Below, piece by piece: positions 5,900 through 60,302 of a stretch of DNA of 64,000 bases. The notes under the pieces were generated by a model, which did no database searches, was not told the DNA's origin, and worked only from the letters and a program-made list of their open reading frames with translations. Position 1 is the stretch's first letter; each line of letters begins with the position of its first letter. Origin of the DNA: Vicinamibacterales bacterium (GTDB lineage: Bacteria; Acidobacteriota; Vicinamibacteria; Vicinamibacterales; UBA8438); contig CBDBOU010000003.1 in the NCBI GenBank assembly GCA_965208535.1, forward strand, positions 132,638 through 196,637, in the 5' to 3' direction. Made by a program: the position numbers and the translations under genes.

Positions 5900-6498
5900 A
5901 GGGATATGCTGAACGAGAGGCACTTCGTATGGCAAGCTGTAACTCACAGAAAAATAACGACTTATCCTCCTTGAACAGGTTTCGGAGCGAAAGGTCGATC
6001 CATGCTACTGGATCGATCGGACTCTGGACGGGCCGATGACGCGATCTAGGTCTGCGCGGACCTGGGCGAGCGCCGTCTGTGCGGCATGCGCGTTGCCTCG
6101 GGACTGGTGCTCGCGGGCGGCGTGCAGCAGTGCACCGGACGTGTGTCGGAACTCCTCGAGGCGGTCAGATGCCCACGTACAGAAGGCTGTCTGCGTCGAC
6201 TCCAGGATTTCGATCTGTTCGTTGAGTGACTGGCCGGTGGACACCGGCTGAGGCAGTGTGGCAGAATTCGAATGCGGCAACGCCGTATCTCCAGCGGGTC
6301 GCCTTCGGTTTTCAGCCTAGCCAAGACTTCGGCCGAGGGCGCCCGCGCCAATTCACCCCCACAACACGCGAGGATGCACCTACAGTACCGGCTCGGGCCG
6401 ACGCCGGTCAAGCGATCCGGATCAGGTTATTTTCAACTACCTGGCAGGGGCATGAATACGCCGAAACCGCCCGACTGGATTGATCTTTTCGCTCGCTC

Positions 6499-7056
6499 GT
6501 GATCACCCAGGGTTATAGTCCCCTTCTCGCTCACGCTCCCGTGACTCGTGAACAGCACGAGGCCTTTCGAACTTGGCTCGGGCGCTTCGCGGAGTGGCTG
6601 TTCAATACGGATCACATAGTGGTTAGGTATGGGATTACCTACGATGGTGTTGACATCGAAAAGCTGTCGCCTGGAACCCGCGGCATAGTTCTCTTGCTTC
6701 TCTATCTGGCGCTCGACGATGACGATGACAGGCCGCTGATTATCGACCAGCCTGAGGAGAACCTGGACCCCCAATCGGTGTTCGACGAACTGGTCCCGAC
6801 GTTCATGGAGGCTAAGGCAAGGCGGCAGGTTGTCATGGTGACGCACAACGGGAATCTGGTCATTAACACAGACGCAGATCAGGTCATCATTGCGGACGCG
6901 GAGCCGCAACCTCATGGTGGTCTCCCACGGCTCACATACCGCGCGGGCGGTCTAGACAATGCCGCGATTCGAAAAGCGGTCTGTGACATTCTCGAGGGCG
7001 GCGAACGTGCGTTCCAGGAACGTGCGCGGCGATTGCGCGTGCGCCTGGAGCGGTAG
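6499..7056 (+). pseudogene. C-terminal remnant of an ABC-type ATPase of the PHP-ATPase (Ppl/TrlF-like) kind
   Basis: Signature LSPGTRG, Walker B IIDQPE, H-loop VTH; Walker A and N-terminal domains absent; in-frame TGA at 6481-6483 just upstream. Confidence 0.7.
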
Positions 7057-7130
7057 GTATGGCGATTCGGATCCGGATGACATCTTGCTGGTGCGAGTCC
7101 CTGGCGGCTCAAACACGATCGTGAATCGAG

Positions 7131-8402
<1,272 letters not shown>

Positions 8403-53626: not shown

Positions 53627-54805
53627 CTACGTCCAGTCGTCGAGGGCGTCCGGCGCATCGAGCGGCACGGCGCGCGCGCCGTCCCCCAGCGGATACGCGT
53701 TCGGGGCCCGGCAGAAAATCGACAGCGACCGGACCGAGCCGGGCGGCAGATCGCGGGCGATCCTGCGCAGTGGGCCGGCGTCGCGGGCGTCCGGGTGCTC
53801 GGTCCACTTCGCGTCGGCCAGTTGGAACGTTCCTGCACGGTGCAGGAGAAAGTCGGCCTCGCGCGCGCGGTCGGCCCGGAAATGGAAGTCCCAGCCGCCG
53901 CGCCGGTTCGACTGCGCGCGGCGAATTTCGGCGCAGACCAACGTCTCCCACAGCGCGCCGGCCAGCGGCGAGGAACGGAGCGCCTCGATCGTGTGCACAC
54001 CGCACAGGAACGCCGCCAGCCCGGCGTCGCGCAGGTACAACTTGGGCCGCTTGACGAGCCCCTTCGTGCGGTTCGCGAACCATGGCTCCAGCAGCATGAC
54101 CTGATGCGACGCGGCCAGCGCCGAGAGCCAGGCGGCGGCCGTGGACCCGCTGATACCGGCGTCGCGCGCGAGGTCGGCGCGGTTGAGCAACTGCGCCGAG
54201 CGCAGCGCCGCGGCGCGCAGGAAGCGCTCGAAGTCCCGGAGGCTCGTCACCTGCAGGAGCTGTCGCAGATCCCGCTCCAGGTAGGTCGCCACGTACGACC
54301 GCAGGAAGCCCTCCGCGTCGATGTCCCGGTTTTCGTACAGCTCCGGGAAGCCGCCGCGGACCAGGAACTGCTCGGCGGCCAGGTCGGGATGCCCCGTCTT
54401 GGCCTCGGCGAACGAGAGCGGCTCGAGCTCGATGACCGCGGCGCGGCCCGCCAGCGAGTCGGAGACCGATTTCATCAGGCCGAGTGGCTGCGACCCCGTC
54501 AGAAGGAAGGCGCCGTAGCGCCCGCGCTCACGATCGACCGCCGCCTTGAGGTGTCTGAACAGTCCGGGCGCATATTGCACCTCGTCCAGGATGACGGGCG
54601 GCGGGTGCCGCGCGAGAAACGTATCCGGATCGCGCTCGGCCTGTTCCGCCTCGCTCGGCAGGTCGAGGGTCACGAAAGCGTGGTCCGGGAACAGCCGCCG
54701 CATCAGACTGGTCTTCCCGGTCTGGCGGGCGCCGGTCAGCACCACCACCGGCCGCGTCGCAGCGCGCTGCAGCAGGAGCGGCTCGATGTGCCGGTCGATC
54801 CACAT
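53627..54805 (-). CDS. AAA_14 ATPase with DUF4143 domain
   Basis: GARQTGKT, ILDEVQ, LTGS, GGFP, YLERD, KRPKLY, READF. Confidence 0.92.
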   Translation of the reverse strand: MWIDRHIEPLLLQRAATRPVVVLTGARQTGKTSLMRRLFPDHAFVTLDLPSEAEQAERDPDTFLARHPPPVILDEVQYAPGLFRHLKAAVDRERGRYGAFLLTGSQPLGLMKSVSDSLAGRAAVIELEPLSFAEAKTGHPDLAAEQFLVRGGFPELYENRDIDAEGFLRSYVATYLERDLRQLLQVTSLRDFERFLRAAALRSAQLLNRADLARDAGISGSTAAAWLSALAASHQVMLLEPWFANRTKGLVKRPKLYLRDAGLAAFLCGVHTIEALRSSPLAGALWETLVCAEIRRAQSNRRGGWDFHFRADRAREADFLLHRAGTFQLADAKWTEHPDARDAGPLRRIARDLPPGSVRSLSIFCRAPNAYPLGDGARAVPLDAPDALDDWT

Positions 54806-54882: not shown

Positions 54883-55767
54883 ATGCGCTGGCCTCGACCG
54901 TGCCGGATGTTGGTGCTGGGGGCCCTCCTGGTCGGCGGAGGACCGGTTTCGGCCCAGAGCGCGGGCGACCCCGATGTGGAAGCGGTTCTGCAGCGCATCC
55001 AGGCCTCCGTCGAGCGCTTCTATTCGCGGGCGCGGCACGTGCTGGCCGACGTGCGCGTCCGCGTGCGGCCGATGGCACGCGACTTTCGCTCCACCGGTCG
55101 TGCCAGAAACCTGCTGTACGAGATGCGGGTCGAGTGGGCGGAGGGGACCGGCACGACGACCGCCGAGCCCCTGGTGATAAGAAGACTCCTGGAGGCCAAT
55201 GGCCGGACGGCCGCACCGGAAGACGAGCCCCAGTGCGCCGATCCGGAACCATTTTCGGAGGAGCCCCTGGCAATCTTCCTTCCCGCGAAGCGGAAGGACT
55301 ACGTGTTCACCTGGTCCGGGCGCGATCGCGAGGCGGGCCGGGAGACGGACGTCCTCGAGTATCGGCTGCGGCAGGAAGAAGCACCGACCATCGAGTGGGA
55401 AGAACTCTGCGTCAGCATCGACCTGCCGGGACACACGCGGGGAAGGGTCTGGGCCGATGTGGAAAACGGAGACGTGCTGCGCGTGGACGAGCGCCTGAGC
55501 GGCATGTTCGAGTTCCGGGTGCCGCGCGAGCAGCGTCGCCGGGGCGTGCGGTCGACGATGACCATCGAGAGCTCCCACAGCACGGTCCGCTATCGCCGGG
55601 TGGCGTTCTCCGATCCGGACGAATCGTTGCTGCTGCCGGCCTCGATGGAGTCGATGACGGTGTGGCGCAACGCGGGCGTCGCGCGCCAGTTCATCACGCA
55701 CGAGATCTCGAACTACCGGCGGTTCGTCACCGGCGGGCGCATAGTCGGGATTCCGCGCCGTCCCTGA
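54883..55767 (+). CDS. Secreted hypothetical protein (beta-rich)
   Basis: Signal peptide; GRVWAD motif similar to 24616-25497. Confidence 0.7.
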   Translation: MRWPRPCRMLVLGALLVGGGPVSAQSAGDPDVEAVLQRIQASVERFYSRARHVLADVRVRVRPMARDFRSTGRARNLLYEMRVEWAEGTGTTTAEPLVIRRLLEANGRTAAPEDEPQCADPEPFSEEPLAIFLPAKRKDYVFTWSGRDREAGRETDVLEYRLRQEEAPTIEWEELCVSIDLPGHTRGRVWADVENGDVLRVDERLSGMFEFRVPREQRRRGVRSTMTIESSHSTVRYRRVAFSDPDESLLLPASMESMTVWRNAGVARQFITHEISNYRRFVTGGRIVGIPRRP

Positions 55768-55772
55768 TCGTC

Positions 55773-55880
55773 TCGGTCACGTTCCAGCCCACATCGTCCA
55801 TGCTCTCGCGGGATCAGCTCGCCCAGGTGCGGCGGGTTCAGCATGTGGCCGACGCGATCGCTTGCCATGTCGTTCATGGT
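55773..55880 (-). pseudogene. higA: Frameshifted 5' fragment of higA, a direct repeat of 59674-59780
   Basis: 108 vs 107 bp, near-identical, with a 1-bp insertion (CGCGGGA vs CGCGGA). Confidence 0.85.
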
Positions 55881-55930
55881 TACGGGTTATGCGATGATCT
55901 CGACCGGGAGTCCGGCTCCTGCGATGGGGA

Positions 55931-57694
55931 TTGATGGCCGTCAGTACGGACGACGTCCGGCGCCAGCTTGGCCTCGGTGAGGACAGCCGCTGGGAGTTCA
56001 AGCAGATCGAGTTCCGGGGCGATCGTCCCGTCAGCCCGCGCCGCGACGACCTGGCCGATGAACTCGCCGCCTTCGCCAACGCCCGTGGCGGCGTGCTGGT
56101 GTGCGGCGTCACCGACGATGGCGACGTACAGGGCATGTCGCGGGCGCAGATGAACGCCTTGGATCGCATCCTGTCCGACGCTTGCGCGGACTCGATCAAG
56201 CCGCCCATCGATGTTGAGATCACCCGTCACGAGATCGGCGACGGCAAGCCGTTGCTCGTGGTGGAGGTGGCGCCCGGCGAGGCCCAGCACGACAGTCCGG
56301 GAGGCAGCTACCGTCGTGTGGGCAGCTCCAAGCGCCAGATGACGCCCGACCAGCGTCTGCGTCTGGCGCAACAGCGCGGGCAGTCGCGGTTCTTGTGGTT
56401 CGACAGGCAGCCCGTGCCGGAAACCGGATTCGAGACCCTGAGCGAGCGTCTGTGGAAACCGCTCGTCAGCATCGCAGGCGCCGCCGATCCCCCGCGGGCG
56501 CTCCGGAACCTGCGCCTGCTGACACCGGACGATGGCGACGCGCTTCGCGCCACCGTCGCCGGCATCCTGTTGTGTACGGAGGCCCCCGAGCGGTGGTTCC
56601 CCAACGCCGCCATCACGGCGACCCGCTACCGCGGCGCCGACCGCGCTTCCGGCCAGCTCGACGCGCAGCAGATTGTCGGGCCGGTCCATCGGCAGATTGC
56701 CGACGCGGTCAGATTCGCCGTGCGCAACATGCGCGTCGCCGCCCGCAAGACACCCGGGCGTATCGACATGCCGCAGTACAGCCGGGAAGCGATATTCGAG
56801 GCGCTGGTCAATGCAGTGGCCCACCGGGACTACTCCATGTCCGGCCGCCGTATCAGGTTGTCGATGTTCGAGAACCGACTGGAGATCGATTCGCCCGGCG
56901 CGCTGCCCAACGGCATGACCATCGCCAATATGGAAGCCAGCCAGGCGACCCGGAACGAGGTCATCGCCTCCGTTTTCGGACGCCTGTCGGTCGGCGACAT
57001 TCCGGGATCGGAGAGTCGTCAGTTCCTGATGGAACGACGCGGCGACGGCGTCATGATCATCGTCAGGAAGACACGGGAGACAGCAGGAAGACCGCCGGTA
57101 TACGCGGTGATCGACGAATCGAACGTGCAGCTCACCATTCCCGCCGCGGATCTGGAGCTCACAGAGGCGCGAGCCGTCATCACCGTGCGGTCGGCAGGCC
57201 GGCCGCTCACCGGCGTCGAGATTCTGGCGCTGTTCCCGAACGGGGCTTGGAAGAGTAGCGCCACGGATGCAGCGGGCGAGGCAGCCATCGAGCTGCACAG
57301 CACGCATCTCCCGATGACCGTGTACGCCGCCGCGCCCGGACATGCCGCTCACGTCGAACGGGAGTGGACCCCGAGCCGCGGGGCTCTGGCCCTGGAGCTG
57401 CCCGCCTTGCCGCAGGGCGGCGCAGCCATCTTCTCCAAGGCGGTCGGTCACCTCCCGGGCCTCAGAGGACGGTTGAATCCGAAACTCGATGCGCTCGATC
57501 GCACGTATCTGTACGCCGACAACATCTCCATCAACGACGGCATGCAACAGCCCGTTCACTTCGTTCTCGGCGAGGATCTGCGGCTGACCGACGCCTGGGG
57601 CTACGAGCTGCTGGTGCGGATCGTCGATATCGTCGGCCGGTCCGCCCTCGTCGAGTATCGGGCGGTCCCGGAAGGGGCAGGCCCCGGACCATGA
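55931..57694 (+). CDS. Schlafen/AlbA_2 domain + RecG-C-like ATP-binding domain + uncharacterised beta-rich C-terminal extension
   Basis: GEDSRWEFK, AFANARGG.L..GV.D; EALVNAVAHRDY, SPG.LP, RNEVI, ERRGDG; aa ~413-587 replace the usual HTH. Confidence 0.85.
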   Translation: MMAVSTDDVRRQLGLGEDSRWEFKQIEFRGDRPVSPRRDDLADELAAFANARGGVLVCGVTDDGDVQGMSRAQMNALDRILSDACADSIKPPIDVEITRHEIGDGKPLLVVEVAPGEAQHDSPGGSYRRVGSSKRQMTPDQRLRLAQQRGQSRFLWFDRQPVPETGFETLSERLWKPLVSIAGAADPPRALRNLRLLTPDDGDALRATVAGILLCTEAPERWFPNAAITATRYRGADRASGQLDAQQIVGPVHRQIADAVRFAVRNMRVAARKTPGRIDMPQYSREAIFEALVNAVAHRDYSMSGRRIRLSMFENRLEIDSPGALPNGMTIANMEASQATRNEVIASVFGRLSVGDIPGSESRQFLMERRGDGVMIIVRKTRETAGRPPVYAVIDESNVQLTIPAADLELTEARAVITVRSAGRPLTGVEILALFPNGAWKSSATDAAGEAAIELHSTHLPMTVYAAAPGHAAHVEREWTPSRGALALELPALPQGGAAIFSKAVGHLPGLRGRLNPKLDALDRTYLYADNISINDGMQQPVHFVLGEDLRLTDAWGYELLVRIVDIVGRSALVEYRAVPEGAGPGP

Positions 57695-57811: not shown

Positions 57812-58603
57812 ATGGCTGACACACTGCACGACCTGCTTCGCGCGCTGCACATGGCGACCGGGTTCGTCGGCCTGGCCGCCTTCTGGATCCCTGCCCTCAC
57901 GCGCAAGGGGGGAAGGCTTCACGTCGCCGCCGGCTGGGTATTCGGCTCGTGCGCCTACGTCGTGGCGCTGACCGCCCTCGGCTCGACCTCGTGGGCGCTG
58001 CTGCATCCGTCGAGCTGGGCGGGGGAACCGGTCAGCCTGGGCCAGGTTCCGCCCGACGAGATCATGTTCGTCGCCATCCTCGGCTTCCTTGGCCTGCTGC
58101 TGCTGCACGGGGTCGAGACCGGCGTCCGCGCGATGCGGACGCGCCGCGAACCGGACCAGTTCGCCGGCTGGCGCCTGCGGGCCCTCAGCTTGGCCGTGCC
58201 CGCGGCCGGCCTGGGGCTCTTCGTCTTCGGCCTCTTCCACCTCGTCCAGGGCGGCGGCGGTCTCTTCTTGATCCCCGTGGCGCTGGGGACCCTCGGCATC
58301 GCCGACTACTTCGAGGAGCGCCGGTTTCTCGCCAATCCCCGCCCCACCCCGATGGCCTGGTGGTACAAGCACATGGAAGGGATGATCGGGTCCGGCATCG
58401 CCTTCCACACCGCCTTCCTCGTCTTCGGCGGGCAGCGTCTGTTCGGCGGCGCCCTCATGCTGGGCTCGTGGTCGTTCCTGCCCTGGATTCTGCCGGCCGC
58501 CCTCGGGCTTCCGGCGCTGCAGATCTGGACGCGCCACTACAAGCGCAGGTTCGGAGAGCTCCCGGAGCAGATCGCGAAGGGATCGACGGCCCGCGCAGAC
58601 TGA
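57812..58603 (+). CDS. Integral membrane protein (DUF2306-like)
   Basis: LHMATG, KGGRLH..AG, HMEGMIGSGIA..TAF; multiple transmembrane helices. Confidence 0.75.
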   Translation: MADTLHDLLRALHMATGFVGLAAFWIPALTRKGGRLHVAAGWVFGSCAYVVALTALGSTSWALLHPSSWAGEPVSLGQVPPDEIMFVAILGFLGLLLLHGVETGVRAMRTRREPDQFAGWRLRALSLAVPAAGLGLFVFGLFHLVQGGGGLFLIPVALGTLGIADYFEERRFLANPRPTPMAWWYKHMEGMIGSGIAFHTAFLVFGGQRLFGGALMLGSWSFLPWILPAALGLPALQIWTRHYKRRFGELPEQIAKGSTARAD

Positions 58604-58743: not shown

Positions 58744-59403
58744 ATGCCCATTCCCGCCGGCCAACCCGCCCCCAACCTCAGCGTTTCCGCCTGGGTGCAG
58801 GGCGCCGCCACGAACCTGGATCAACAGCGCGGCAACGTGGTCCTGATCGAGGTCTTCCAGGTCAACTGCCCCGGCTGCTTCTTCAGCGCCATCCCCGAAG
58901 CGATCAAGGTCCACGACCGCTTCGCCGGCCAGCCGGTCACGGTTCTCGGCATCGCCACCGCCTTCGAGGACTGGGACAAGAACACCTTCGACAACCTGCA
59001 GCGGCTCGCGGAGACCGGCCAGGTGATCGGCGAGACCCGTCTGATGCTGGATCGGGCCGGCCTGCTCGACGACGGCAAGCTCCGCTATCGCATCCCGTTC
59101 CCGCTGGCCATGGACGAGTTGATTCCGGTCGCCGGTGACCCTACGCGGGAACAGGCCGTGGCCGCCATTCGCCCCCAGGTTCCCGTCTTCGATACGCTTC
59201 CCGAAGCGCACCAGAGCCAGTTGATCGACCGGGTGACAACGTACCTGAAGTCCCGCGAGTACGCGCCAACGACCTTCGATCGATACGCTCTCCAGGGCAC
59301 GCCGTCGACCATCGTCATCGACCAGCGGGGTACGCTTCGCGAGATCACCTATGGCCAGGTCGGCGATCTCGCCCCGACGGTCCAGGCCCTCCTCGACGAG
59401 TGA
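58744..59403 (+). CDS. TlpA/peroxiredoxin-like thioredoxin-fold protein
   Basis: EVFQVNCPGC, GTPSTIVID. Confidence 0.85.
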   Translation: MPIPAGQPAPNLSVSAWVQGAATNLDQQRGNVVLIEVFQVNCPGCFFSAIPEAIKVHDRFAGQPVTVLGIATAFEDWDKNTFDNLQRLAETGQVIGETRLMLDRAGLLDDGKLRYRIPFPLAMDELIPVAGDPTREQAVAAIRPQVPVFDTLPEAHQSQLIDRVTTYLKSREYAPTTFDRYALQGTPSTIVIDQRGTLREITYGQVGDLAPTVQALLDE

Positions 59404-59462: not shown

Positions 59463-59786
59463 TCAAGCGTGCGATGCGTCCACGCGCCGCCCGGCAGCGG
59501 CCCGGTCCCGCCGCGCCTGGGCAAGCTCGTAACTCGCCTGCATTCGCATCCAGTGGTCGGCGGTGCCCCAGCCGATCTCCTCCAACGCCAGCGCCATTTT
59601 CGCCGACACCCCCGCTCTTCCGTTCAACACGCGCGACAGTGTTCCGCGCTCGCAACCGAGACGCGCTGCCGTATCGGTCACGTTCCAGCCCACGTCGTCC
59701 ATGCTCTCGCGGATCAGTTCGCCCAGGTGCGGCGGGTTCAGCATGGGGCCGACGCGATCGCGTTCCATGTCGTTCATGGTCAACAC
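59463..59786 (-). CDS. higA: HigA antitoxin
   Basis: PPHLGELIRE, HTH, WMRMQASYEL. Confidence 0.92.
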   Translation of the reverse strand: MLTMNDMERDRVGPMLNPPHLGELIRESMDDVGWNVTDTAARLGCERGTLSRVLNGRAGVSAKMALALEEIGWGTADHWMRMQASYELAQARRDRAAAGRRVDASHA

Positions 59787-59796
59787 TCCCTTACGG

Positions 59797-60069
59797 TCAG
59801 TGATAGTCGATCAGGTCCACGTCGACCGCCTCGCCGTCCTTGAAACGGAACACCACGCGCCAGTTGCCCGAGACGCGGACGCTCCACTGGCCCGAGCGGT
59901 CACCCTTGAGGGGATGCAGCCGGAAGCCGGGTGCGTCGGCGCTGCCCGGATGGGTTGCCTCTTGCAGCCGGAACAGAATGCGCCGGATCCGTGGCACCGA
60001 GCCCGCAGGCAGCCGCGCGGCATCGTCCCGCTCGTGCAGGGCGCGCAGACCCTTGTGCCTGATTCTCAT
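59797..60069 (-). CDS. higB: HigB (RelE-like) toxin
   Basis: IRHKGL, LHPLKGDR, SVRVSGNWRVVFRF, DLIDYH. Confidence 0.93.
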   Translation of the reverse strand: MRIRHKGLRALHERDDAARLPAGSVPRIRRILFRLQEATHPGSADAPGFRLHPLKGDRSGQWSVRVSGNWRVVFRFKDGEAVDVDLIDYH

Positions 60070-60122
60070 GGCTCACTGTGCCTGATTCTCATGGCTCACT
60101 GTGCCTGATTCTCATGGCTCAC
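60054..60122. repeat. Perfect 23-bp tandem repeat x3 containing the higB start codon
   Basis: TGTGCCTGATTCTCATGGCTCAC at 60054, 60077, 60100. Confidence 0.95.
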
Positions 60123-60302
60123 TGTAGCGCGCAGCGTTACGCGCCGCAAGACGGAGCACTTGTGCGTTGTCTAGGCGCGGTGCAATGACTGTCCGGCTAC
60201 ACCGCGCTGGTCGTGCGCCCTGCGGGTTGGCCGTCCGATGGAGGCAGGAGGCCGGTTTACCCATCCGCAAGCACGCGTGTAGAGTGGGGTTATGGAGGGC
60301 GT

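Follow-up and report, generated by a model that had tools for sequence, protein, structure and literature searches.

A Schlafen-GHKL protein with a portable two-domain beta module: a candidate infection-sensing nuclease from a Vicinamibacterales bacterium

What is the role of a bacterial Schlafen protein whose usual C-terminal helix-turn-helix (HTH) domain has been replaced by something else? This question is raised by a gene at positions 55931-57694 of a 64,000-nucleotide stretch of contig CBDBOU010000003.1 from a Vicinamibacterales bacterium (Acidobacteriota); the whole stretch is called the window below. The original prediction, made from the sequence alone, noted an intact Schlafen acidic motif (E-x4-EFK ... 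GV.D), a RecG-C-like ATP-binding domain and, instead of the HTH, a novel two-part beta-rich segment interpreted as a ligand sensor, and proposed a phage-sensing RNase. Here we report that both active sites of the enzyme are intact, that an all-beta module at amino acids (aa) 403-580 stands where the class usually has the HTH, and that the same module of about 170 aa is exchanged among many unrelated effectors. By analogy with characterized relatives, the protein is on balance probably a single-protein, cytoplasmic nuclease of the abortive-infection type from the Schlafen-GHKL (Schlatpase) class, which would be gated by ATP and would sense infection through its beta tail.

The window has a G+C content of 68.5%, and long spurious open reading frames (ORFs) are therefore common in it. 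The ORF 55931-57694(+) is uninterrupted and is favored by the periodicity of G+C at third codon positions (GC3), which does not favor a 559-aa antisense ORF. It encodes 587 aa counted from TTG at 55931 and 586 aa from ATG at 55934. The latter is the likely start codon: its methionine (M2) is the first residue in all homologues, the full-length ones having 579-587 aa. Nucleotide homology to an orthologue with 91% identity spans positions 55923-57684 only, that is, essentially the ORF with no flank. For this single sequence pair, the ratio of nonsynonymous to synonymous substitution rates (dN/dS) is 0.16 for the whole gene, and 0.37 and 0.13 for the first and second domains of the tail, respectively; judged by these ratios, the gene is under purifying selection. 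Metatranscriptome contigs with 95-97% identity span most of the ORF, which suggests that close relatives express the gene, subject to the usual reservations about contigs and carried-over DNA. The sequencing runs that contain the gene of the window are sponge, coral-reef and marine metagenomes. No Rfam family matched the region upstream of the gene.

Pfam finds two domains in the protein and no others: SLFN_AlbA_2 (PF04326) at aa 17-138 (E=3.7e-20; 73.1 bits against a gathering cut-off of 25.3) and, downstream of it, HATPase_c_4 (PF13749) at aa 305-402 (E=9.5e-19; 67.6 bits). NCBIfam has no model for the whole protein. The best PADLOC match, at aa 39-325, is the model of Schlafen fused to prokaryotic Argonaute (SLFN-pAgo); the SLFN-pAgo and Aga matches, which span aa 39-330, are weak. 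The conservation of individual residues was judged on an alignment of 41 homologues. In the Schlafen domain E22 is invariant, and E17 and K24 are nearly invariant (at least 90%), in agreement with the Ex4(E/D)xK motif of prokaryotic Schlafens (PMC13056530). C58, G59, V60, and D62 are conserved to the same degree, and D62 falls within the stretch aligned to residues 212-275 of SLFN13 when the sequence profile of the family is compared with the Protein Data Bank (PDB). This profile reaches 3LMM (E=1.3e-8), 2KYY and SLFN13/SLFN12, the match to the SLFN proteins being their catalytic stretch.

The structural comparison leads to the same relatives. The full-length AlphaFold2 model, built from the 41-sequence alignment, has a mean predicted local distance difference test score (pLDDT) of 82. 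Its top Foldseek match in the PDB, covering aa 1 to about 410 (E=1e-16), is 3LMM, the DIP2311 protein that serves as the prototype of the AlbA_2-HATPase_c_4-winged HTH architecture. It is followed by the nuclease domains of SLFN13, SLFN11, SLFN5, SLFN12, and SLFN14 together with the SAMD9 tRNase, then by ATP-binding domains of histidine kinases, and next by the transthyretin-like domain of carboxypeptidase D, which is placed on part of the tail. The middle domain aligns to that of 3LMM and is the best conserved part of the protein, with a mean pairwise identity of 0.71. At the ATP-binding site, E290 and N294 of the N-box probably correspond to E314 and N318 of RzAgo, the pAgo fusion of the same class, where these residues coordinate the gamma-phosphate and Mg2+ (bioRxiv 10.64898/2026.05.29.728809); the correspondence is read from the shared E-x3-N spacing rather than from an alignment to RzAgo. 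A G2-like RGDG (aa 370-373) lies within the conserved MERRGDGV, where M367, E368, and R370-G373 are invariant and R369 and V374 nearly so. A loop with low pLDDT at aa 325-340 may be a flexible ATP lid. Thus, the Schlafen active site (E17/E22/K24/D62) and the GHKL ligands (E290/N294) are all intact in the window protein, which by its sequence has every testable feature of prokaryotic Schlafens and of the Schlatpase supradomain.

For the tail, Pfam, NCBIfam and PADLOC searches with aa 403-587 gave nothing above noise (the best match is Big_1, E=0.1). AlphaFold2 folds the tail alone into two beta domains with a pLDDT of 88 and a predicted template modeling (pTM) score of 0.82. An HTH variant was considered and rejected, aa 403-587 being all-beta in the model and matching no HTH family of Pfam. 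The first domain is a transthyretin-like sandwich, with Foldseek matches to the N-terminal extension of SusC (9hfj) and to the transthyretin-like domain of carboxypeptidase D (5aq0), the template modeling scores normalized to the target being 0.71 and 0.79, respectively; PF13620 is detected in homologues. It includes the segment VITVRSAGRPLTGVEI...TDAAGEA (aa 416-451), which had been recognized as carboxypeptidase-regulatory from the sequence. The second domain has the conserved core GGxxIF...PGLxGRLNPxxDxxxRTYLYAxNIxIxxGxxQPVxF with invariant G/P/D/R residues, carries a conserved surface formed by D520/R524/Y526/Y528/N531/Q540, and matched nothing in Pfam, NCBIfam or the PDB profile search. 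When the tail model was compared by Foldseek with the PDB and with the predicted viral structures of BFVD, the first domain alone was matched, and neither the second domain nor the whole module had a counterpart (scores normalized to the query of at most 0.40). The sequence profile of the tail also found nothing in the PDB, the best match, barnase (E=1.7), being noise. An accidental fusion lacking homologues was likewise rejected, given hundreds of full-length homologues and 564 clusters that carry the module.

The observations of the original prediction are thus confirmed, for the acidic motif, the ATP-binding domain and the replacement of the HTH by a beta module of two parts, and both the Foldseek comparison of the tail and the census of architectures bear on its interpretation, which is partly supported. 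The tail is an undescribed domain, yet a common and not a singular one: the claim of novelty holds for the domain as such and fails if it is taken to mean rarity, because the module occurs in 564 clusters, the protein has more than 6000 matches, and Schlafen+GHKL proteins with Ig-like tails were catalogued in 2026 (bioRxiv 10.64898/2026.05.29.728809; PMC13056530). In the preprint the Ig-like Schlatpase tails form a bare category presented without analysis (bioRxiv 10.64898/2026.05.29.728809). In the literature searched, we found no description of the two-domain tail as a unit, of its occurrence on TIR, caspase, PIN, kinase and DUF4143 proteins, or of the placement of the Schlafen gene between hsdM and hsdS.

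The spread over other effectors was observed by searching 1.84 billion cluster representatives exhaustively with phmmer, aa 403-587 being the query. The 564 tail-bearing clusters (at 50% identity) match nearly always up to the C-terminus of the protein. N-terminal partners were assigned by Pfam in the top 150 of the 564 representatives. Besides domains of the Schlafen-GHKL type (HATPase_c_4, 28; SLFN, 10), these include TIR_2 (12), TIR (4), SEFIR (2), DUF4143 (7), AAA_14 (3), protein kinase (3), caspase (2), trypsin-like protease (2), and DUF4062 (2), with PIN_8, PIN_12, HSDR_N, N6_Mtase, and M48 found once each. The effector classes with the module are therefore Schlafen-GHKL, TIR, SEFIR, caspase, trypsin, PIN, kinase, M48, DUF4062, and AAA_14-DUF4143. 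The 41 non-Schlafen carriers of the tail fall into at least 22 unrelated N-terminal clusters. A clear example is provided by a TIR-tail protein that is 60% identical to the window protein without gaps from residue 403 (IPAA...) to 579. Standalone tail proteins of 170 aa also exist, and the core motif of the second domain is kept in all fusion types. In congeners, AAA_14-DUF4143-tail proteins are encoded at L098 7507-9219, L099 8706-10382, L100 7115-8839, and L101 7645-9078.

Because the same module is swapped among many immune-type effectors, we infer that the tail is a sensor or regulatory domain, one module on many effectors being a signature of such domains in conflict systems and not a proof. 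The fusions to TIR, SEFIR, caspase, trypsin, PIN, kinase and DUF4143-ATPase proteins give the ligand-sensor interpretation better support than it had originally, and it remains an interpretation. A wider proposal can be made only tentatively. Under it, at least ten effector classes would share one portable immune domain, hitherto undescribed, that acts as a sensor or regulator and recognizes a single conserved infection cue. Its Schlafen form would be built into type I restriction-modification (R-M) operons in sponge symbionts, serving as a second, PrrC-like line of defense, and would be traded across more than 14 phyla.

Two of the loci with other tail fusions have distinctive surroundings. 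At L098 (6092-14543) the gene of the DUF4143 fusion lies between an AAA_15/AAA_21 ATPase and a pair formed by a 1149-aa helicase and a 609-aa MZB (MrfA Zn-binding) protein, and looks like part of another defense cluster. At L102 (507-9071) a 356-aa TIR fusion, with the tail 60% identical, is found amid many small ORFs, a GpA-type terminase and BrnT/BrnA; this region may be a prophage.

Two characterized proteins suggest how such a tail could act. In RzAgo, ATP binding by the PF13749 GHKL domain drives tetramerization, and a bilobed Schlafen nuclease like that of mammals is thereby assembled and cleaves tRNA; sensing falls to the C-terminal pAgo core, which determines the oligomeric state, and defense needs both the ATPase and the nuclease (bioRxiv 10.64898/2026.05.29.728809). 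The sensor of RorSlfn5 is an Ig-like domain at the C-terminus; it binds a tail-assembly chaperone of the phage, and the specificity moves with the domain (PMC13056530). A sensor role is proposed for the beta tail because it occupies the sensor position after the Schlatpase core. By analogy with both, the Schlafen domains would be kept apart or inactive in the resting state. The beta module would bind a cue of infection, which could be a phage protein or else a conserved ligand of phage or host origin, and this binding may license dimerization or tetramerization through the GHKL domain in an ATP-dependent manner. In the assembly the Schlafen domains would make up a bilobed nuclease, and its cleavage of tRNA would halt translation and abort the infection. 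All three elements of the scheme, namely cue, substrate and oligomeric switch, are modeled on the relatives.

Several points weigh against this scheme. The Asp of the G1 box varies between D and Q across the family, EI(D/Q)SPG, and ATP binding is therefore plausible but unproven. The substrate, which may be tRNA, other RNA or DNA, is suggested solely by relatives. Neither of the two prokaryotic Schlafens (pSlfns) of the HisKinase type tested in E. coli gave defense against the phage panel applied (PMC13056530), and in the literature searched we found no experiment on the Schlatpase family with the beta C-terminal module (betaCTD). The copy in the window lacks both an R-M partner and a conserved neighbor. 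Finally, the mean pairwise identity of the beta module (64-70%) equals that of the enzyme domains (64-71%). In this the tail differs from the RorSlfn5 sensor, which diverges, and a hypervariable sensor of phage proteins is not indicated by the aligned sequences. The cue is therefore probably conserved, or else a component of the host.

The distribution of the family is typical of a mobile gene. A search of 5.8 billion proteins yielded more than 6000 matches, with hundreds of homologues of about 580 aa that are 60-92% identical over 98-100% of the length. The family is found in more than 14 phyla, mostly in metagenome-assembled genomes of sponge and marine symbionts. A scan with one genome per species gave 80 full-length loci, whose taxa include Acidobacteriota, Poribacteria, Nitrospirota, Chloroflexota, Latescibacterota, Gemmatimonadota, Alpha- and Gammaproteobacteria, and Actinomycetota, as well as Bacteroidota, Cyanobacteriota, Thermodesulfobacteriota, Verrucomicrobiota, Binatota, Spirochaetia, and others. 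In the gene tree, copies from different phyla are intermingled; it contains cross-phylum sister pairs that are well supported, and it requires 24 label changes against a minimum of 13. Even within the genus of the window the distribution is patchy, and congeneric copies, being only 47-65% identical, are no closer than copies from other phyla. Since the homology to the 91% orthologue stops at the limits of the ORF, the gene moves horizontally as a bare cassette.

The genome that contains the window (8.4 Mb, three contigs) encodes eight Schlafen-GHKL paralogues, of which only the window copy has the beta tail. Its congeners have 5-25 matches each, which amounts to a large expansion of the class in this genus. 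In addition, complete genomes contain truncated copies (P0275-P0393) of 150-320 aa with 57-73% identity, which comprise the end of the GHKL domain with the tail or the tail alone. These are probably remnants; many such copies in complete genomes imply that the family decays often.

The strongest signal from genomic context, missed by the original prediction, lies outside the window: elsewhere the family is embedded in type I R-M operons. By non-iterated tblastn at the 80 species-representative loci, a type I component occurs within 10 kb in 35 cases (about 44%), two or more components in 27, and all three in 19. The hsdM gene is upstream on the same strand in 28 of 31 loci, hsdS downstream on the same strand in 23/28, and hsdR downstream on the same strand in all 22, giving the fixed order hsdM-slfn-hsdS-hsdR. 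By Pfam, hsdM is the sole recurrent upstream neighbor (14 of 76 loci), all others being singletons; it is directly upstream in 24/81 loci. At L003-L005, where hsdM occupies 6337-8004 and slfn begins at 8001, the slfn start and the hsdM stop overlap by 4 nt; in 20/81 loci an N6_Mtase-type ORF on the same strand has its end at this offset. In contrast to the betaCTD type, HTH-type Schlatpase paralogues from the same genus are never found near type I genes (0/20; Fisher p=1e-4 against 35/80), while tail-type copies from the genus or family are near such genes in three of eight cases. Seven loci with other tail fusions contain no hsd genes. On the gene tree, the R-M context was gained or lost at least 20 times. 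In the R-M operons, the Schlafen gene would form a second layer of defense. Schlatpase genes in type I R-M operons of Poribacteria and their horizontal transfer have been noted (bioRxiv 10.64898/2026.05.29.728809).

Some of these operons contain further genes. The Nitrospira operon (L003) consists of hsdM, slfn (4-nt overlap), an 81-aa ORF (4-nt overlap), a HEPN-like gene, an MNT-HsdS fusion, a 640-aa ORF and hsdR. The 81-aa ORF (L003 9749-9994), which is conserved, has no Pfam match and overlaps the slfn stop by 4 nt, is present in 15 R-M-embedded loci (including L003, L008, L009, L023, L026, L028, and L049) and absent from the window; it could be a small regulator or an immunity partner. In type I R-M operons of these symbionts (L003 10020-12628), a HEPN-like NTase_sub_bind gene is followed by HsdS fused to NTP_transf_2/Polbeta and DUF559, so that the specificity subunit in effect incorporates an MNT/HEPN module. 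Other companions at homologous loci are PIN/Phd, PemK, OLD-like AAA_15 with DUF4276, Mrr, HEPN/MNT, integrases and IS66. The idea of a second-messenger receptor was rejected, as homologous loci have no recurring cyclase, Cas10 or TIR-synthase partner.

The R-M linkage raises an alternative to infection sensing as such, which we regard as doubtful. By this explanation, the beta module docks the nuclease on the Hsd complex from the same operon, where it is kept latent until a phage anti-restriction protein disables or changes the R-M enzyme and so sets the tRNase free. The copy in the window, having lost its partner, would then be an orphan, perhaps free of control, silent or re-wired. There is a precedent, since the linked type I R-M enzyme silences PrrC and a phage anti-restriction factor activates it (PMC2610378, PMC3458546). 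The specificity of the linkage for the betaCTD type, the fixed order and the overlap with the hsdM stop agree with such a guard, as does the presence of an N6_Mtase or HSDR_N domain in one module-bearing representative each. Because the conservation of the tail points to a conserved cue or host component, and fits a conserved host partner, this explanation stays alive. However, 45 of the 80 members (56%), the window copy and the other betaCTD fusions examined (TIR, caspase, DUF4143, standalone) lack nearby Hsd genes, and a context that switches so often on the tree also fits hitch-hiking in a defense-island scaffold.

Transthyretin-like domains often dimerize, and the fold of the first domain leads to a second, improbable, explanation: the beta module is a structural oligomerization or scaffold domain, while the GHKL or middle domain senses, for example, the nucleotide pool or the status of nucleic acids. 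The highly conserved tail, with no diversifying signal, could be explained in this way, as could the additional copy of the second domain in the caspase fusion. Schlafen effectors do act as oligomers, the RzAgo tetramer and the RorSlfn5 hexamer being examples. However, in the Schlatpase precedent oligomerization is already provided by GHKL, and one module shared by more than ten unrelated effector types and a standalone form is the pattern of a sensor or regulatory domain.

It is very unlikely that the protein serves no defense function, as a nucleic-acid-binding regulator or nucleoid-associated protein of the AlbA_2/'RecG-like' transcription-factor class or as a decaying functionless orphan: NCBI does name homologues 'putative DNA binding domain-containing protein', 30% of prokaryotic Schlafen genes are outside defense islands (PMC13056530), the window copy is in a rearranged region without R-M genes, and truncated copies are many in other genomes, but the part that is missing is precisely the DNA-binding HTH, Ex4ExK and D are kept in an intact ORF under the dN/dS given above with transcripts in close relatives, and patchy cross-phylum transfer with toxin-antitoxin (TA), R-M and integrase companions is typical of defense genes.

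Comparison with known systems places the predicted sensing nuclease alongside RzAgo in the Schlatpase class, with which it shares the N-terminal SLFN + PF13749 core, its order, Ex4ExK, E-x3-N, and a variable C-terminal module after the ATPase (bioRxiv 10.64898/2026.05.29.728809). The tail here differs both from the pAgo core, which has about 700 aa, and from the HTH found in more than 90% of the class, and the guide RNA/target DNA logic of RzAgo is not expected. Like RorSlfn5/pSlfn5 (PMC13056530), the family would combine, in a single gene, a Schlafen tRNase effector and a C-terminal beta-sandwich proposed or shown to sense phage. However, in pSlfn5 the Schlafen domain is fused directly to an integrin/complement-like Ig domain with no ATPase, whereas the window protein has GHKL and the middle domain between Schlafen and the tail; the pSlfn5 Ig-like domain diverges fast, whereas the transthyretin/CarboxypepD_reg-matching tail is conserved and common to TIR, caspase and PIN proteins. 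DIP2311 of Corynebacterium diphtheriae (PDB 3LMM) has a similar AlbA_2-middle-HATPase_c_4 part; it ends in a winged HTH, the mark of 'RecG-like' regulators of this type, which the window protein lacks, and has no beta module.

The likeness to PrrC/RloC (PMC2610378, PMC3458546) is at the level of the family: an NTPase-regulated nuclease inside a type I hsd operon, tRNA being the putative substrate here. Such a position suggests that the nuclease backs up restriction. The folds are unrelated, PrrC/RloC combining an ABC ATPase with a HEPN-like anticodon nuclease, neither of which Pfam finds in the window protein; prrC is always R-M-linked, whereas the betaCTD family is so in about 44% of genomes and not in the window. 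CRISPR-associated Schlafen (Cash, Csx15-Schlafen; PMC13462974) is a Schlafen tRNase with a fused sensor domain, as predicted here. Its sensor is a Rossmann-like receptor of cyclic tetra-adenylate (cA4) tied to type III CRISPR, whereas no signal-making enzyme is linked to the window family.

Prokaryotic Schlafens were shown to be anti-phage tRNases only in 2025-2026. In the 2026 literature SLFN+HisKinase/GHKL is the commonest prokaryotic Schlafen architecture, and this class has so far been dissected only as a pAgo fusion. The family described here is a compact 580-aa version of it, with a small portable beta module as the proposed sensor. The ligand of this module, once found, would define a new sensing principle transferable to many systems. 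The insertion between hsdM and hsdS offers a testable Schlafen counterpart of the classic PrrC-EcoprrI pairing, and the family as a whole illustrates heavy cross-phylum exchange of defense cassettes in sponge microbiomes.

Table 1. Domains and motifs of the Schlafen-GHKL-betaCTD gene and features of its neighborhood (window positions)
Feature	Positions	Strand	Basis
Schlafen-GHKL-betaCTD gene, intact	55934..57694	+	ORF, translation, GC3 frame, homologue lengths, dN/dS
Schlafen/AlbA_2 nuclease domain, aa 17-138	55979..56344	+	Pfam PF04326, Foldseek, PDB profile
Catalytic motif E17-x4-E22-x-K24 (GEDSRWEFK)	55979..56002	+	Conservation in 41 homologues
D62 of CGVTD, putative third acidic catalytic residue	56114..56116	+	Conservation, SLFN13 alignment
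Middle/linker domain, aa 139-304	56345..56842	+	Conservation, Foldseek, PADLOC
N-box E290-x3-N294 (FEALVNAV), predicted Mg-ATP ligands	56798..56812	+	Both residues invariant
GHKL (Bergerat) ATP-binding domain, HATPase_c_4, aa 305-402	56843..57136	+	Pfam PF13749
betaCTD domain 1, aa 413-479, transthyretin-like/CarboxypepD_reg beta sandwich	57167..57367	+	AlphaFold2 pLDDT about 90, Foldseek
betaCTD domain 2, aa 486-578, beta domain	57386..57664	+	AlphaFold2, conserved core motif
AAA_14 + DUF4143 ATPase, 392 aa, without beta module	53627..54805	-	Pfam PF13173 6.8e-26, PF13635 8.8e-35; GC3 frame
orf294	54883-55767		No Pfam/PDB match
Frameshifted higA 5' fragment, 51 nt upstream of the Schlafen gene	55769..55880	-	Repeat of 59670-59780
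orf263	57812-58603		No Pfam/PDB match
CPGC redoxin-like gene	58744-59403
HTH antitoxin (HigA-like)	59463-59786	-	Pfam HTH_31 1.8e-07
HigB-like toxin	59797-60069	-	Pfam HigB-like_toxin 1.6e-12

In the window itself, the Schlafen gene is an orphan in a rearranged, TA-rich spot (Table 1), and no Hsd homologue or R-M remnant is present in the 64 kb. The original prediction had invoked its position among TA genes, a DUF4143 ATPase and defense remnants. The HigB/HigA-like genes (59463-60069) and the AAA_14/DUF4143 ATPase are there, the latter being the real gene at its position in preference to longer plus-strand ORFs; the remnants are limited to the higA fragment and insertion sequence fragments. 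The immediate neighbors lend no support. As orf294 and orf263 are absent beside all 85 homologous loci, including that of the 91% orthologue, they were rejected as partners of the system. Other neighbors are a pyrroloquinoline quinone (PQQ) dehydrogenase and a fragment of a Mutator-family transposase.

The higA fragment is one copy of a 112-bp direct repeat (55769-55880 and 59670-59780; 94-95% identical) that corresponds to codons 1-37 of the HigA-like gene. Because the two higA 5' copies flank the 3.9-kb slfn-orf263-redoxin segment, the region has been rearranged locally, which suggests insertion or recombination at the higBA locus. The very high depth of metatranscriptome contigs upstream of the Schlafen gene comes from this fragment. 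At the other end of the TA pair, positions 60054-60125 contain three perfect tandem copies of a 23-nt unit (TGTGCCTGATTCTCATGGCTCAC...) at the start of higB (60069), covering its first codons and the sequence just upstream; they may be an operator or promoter repeat.

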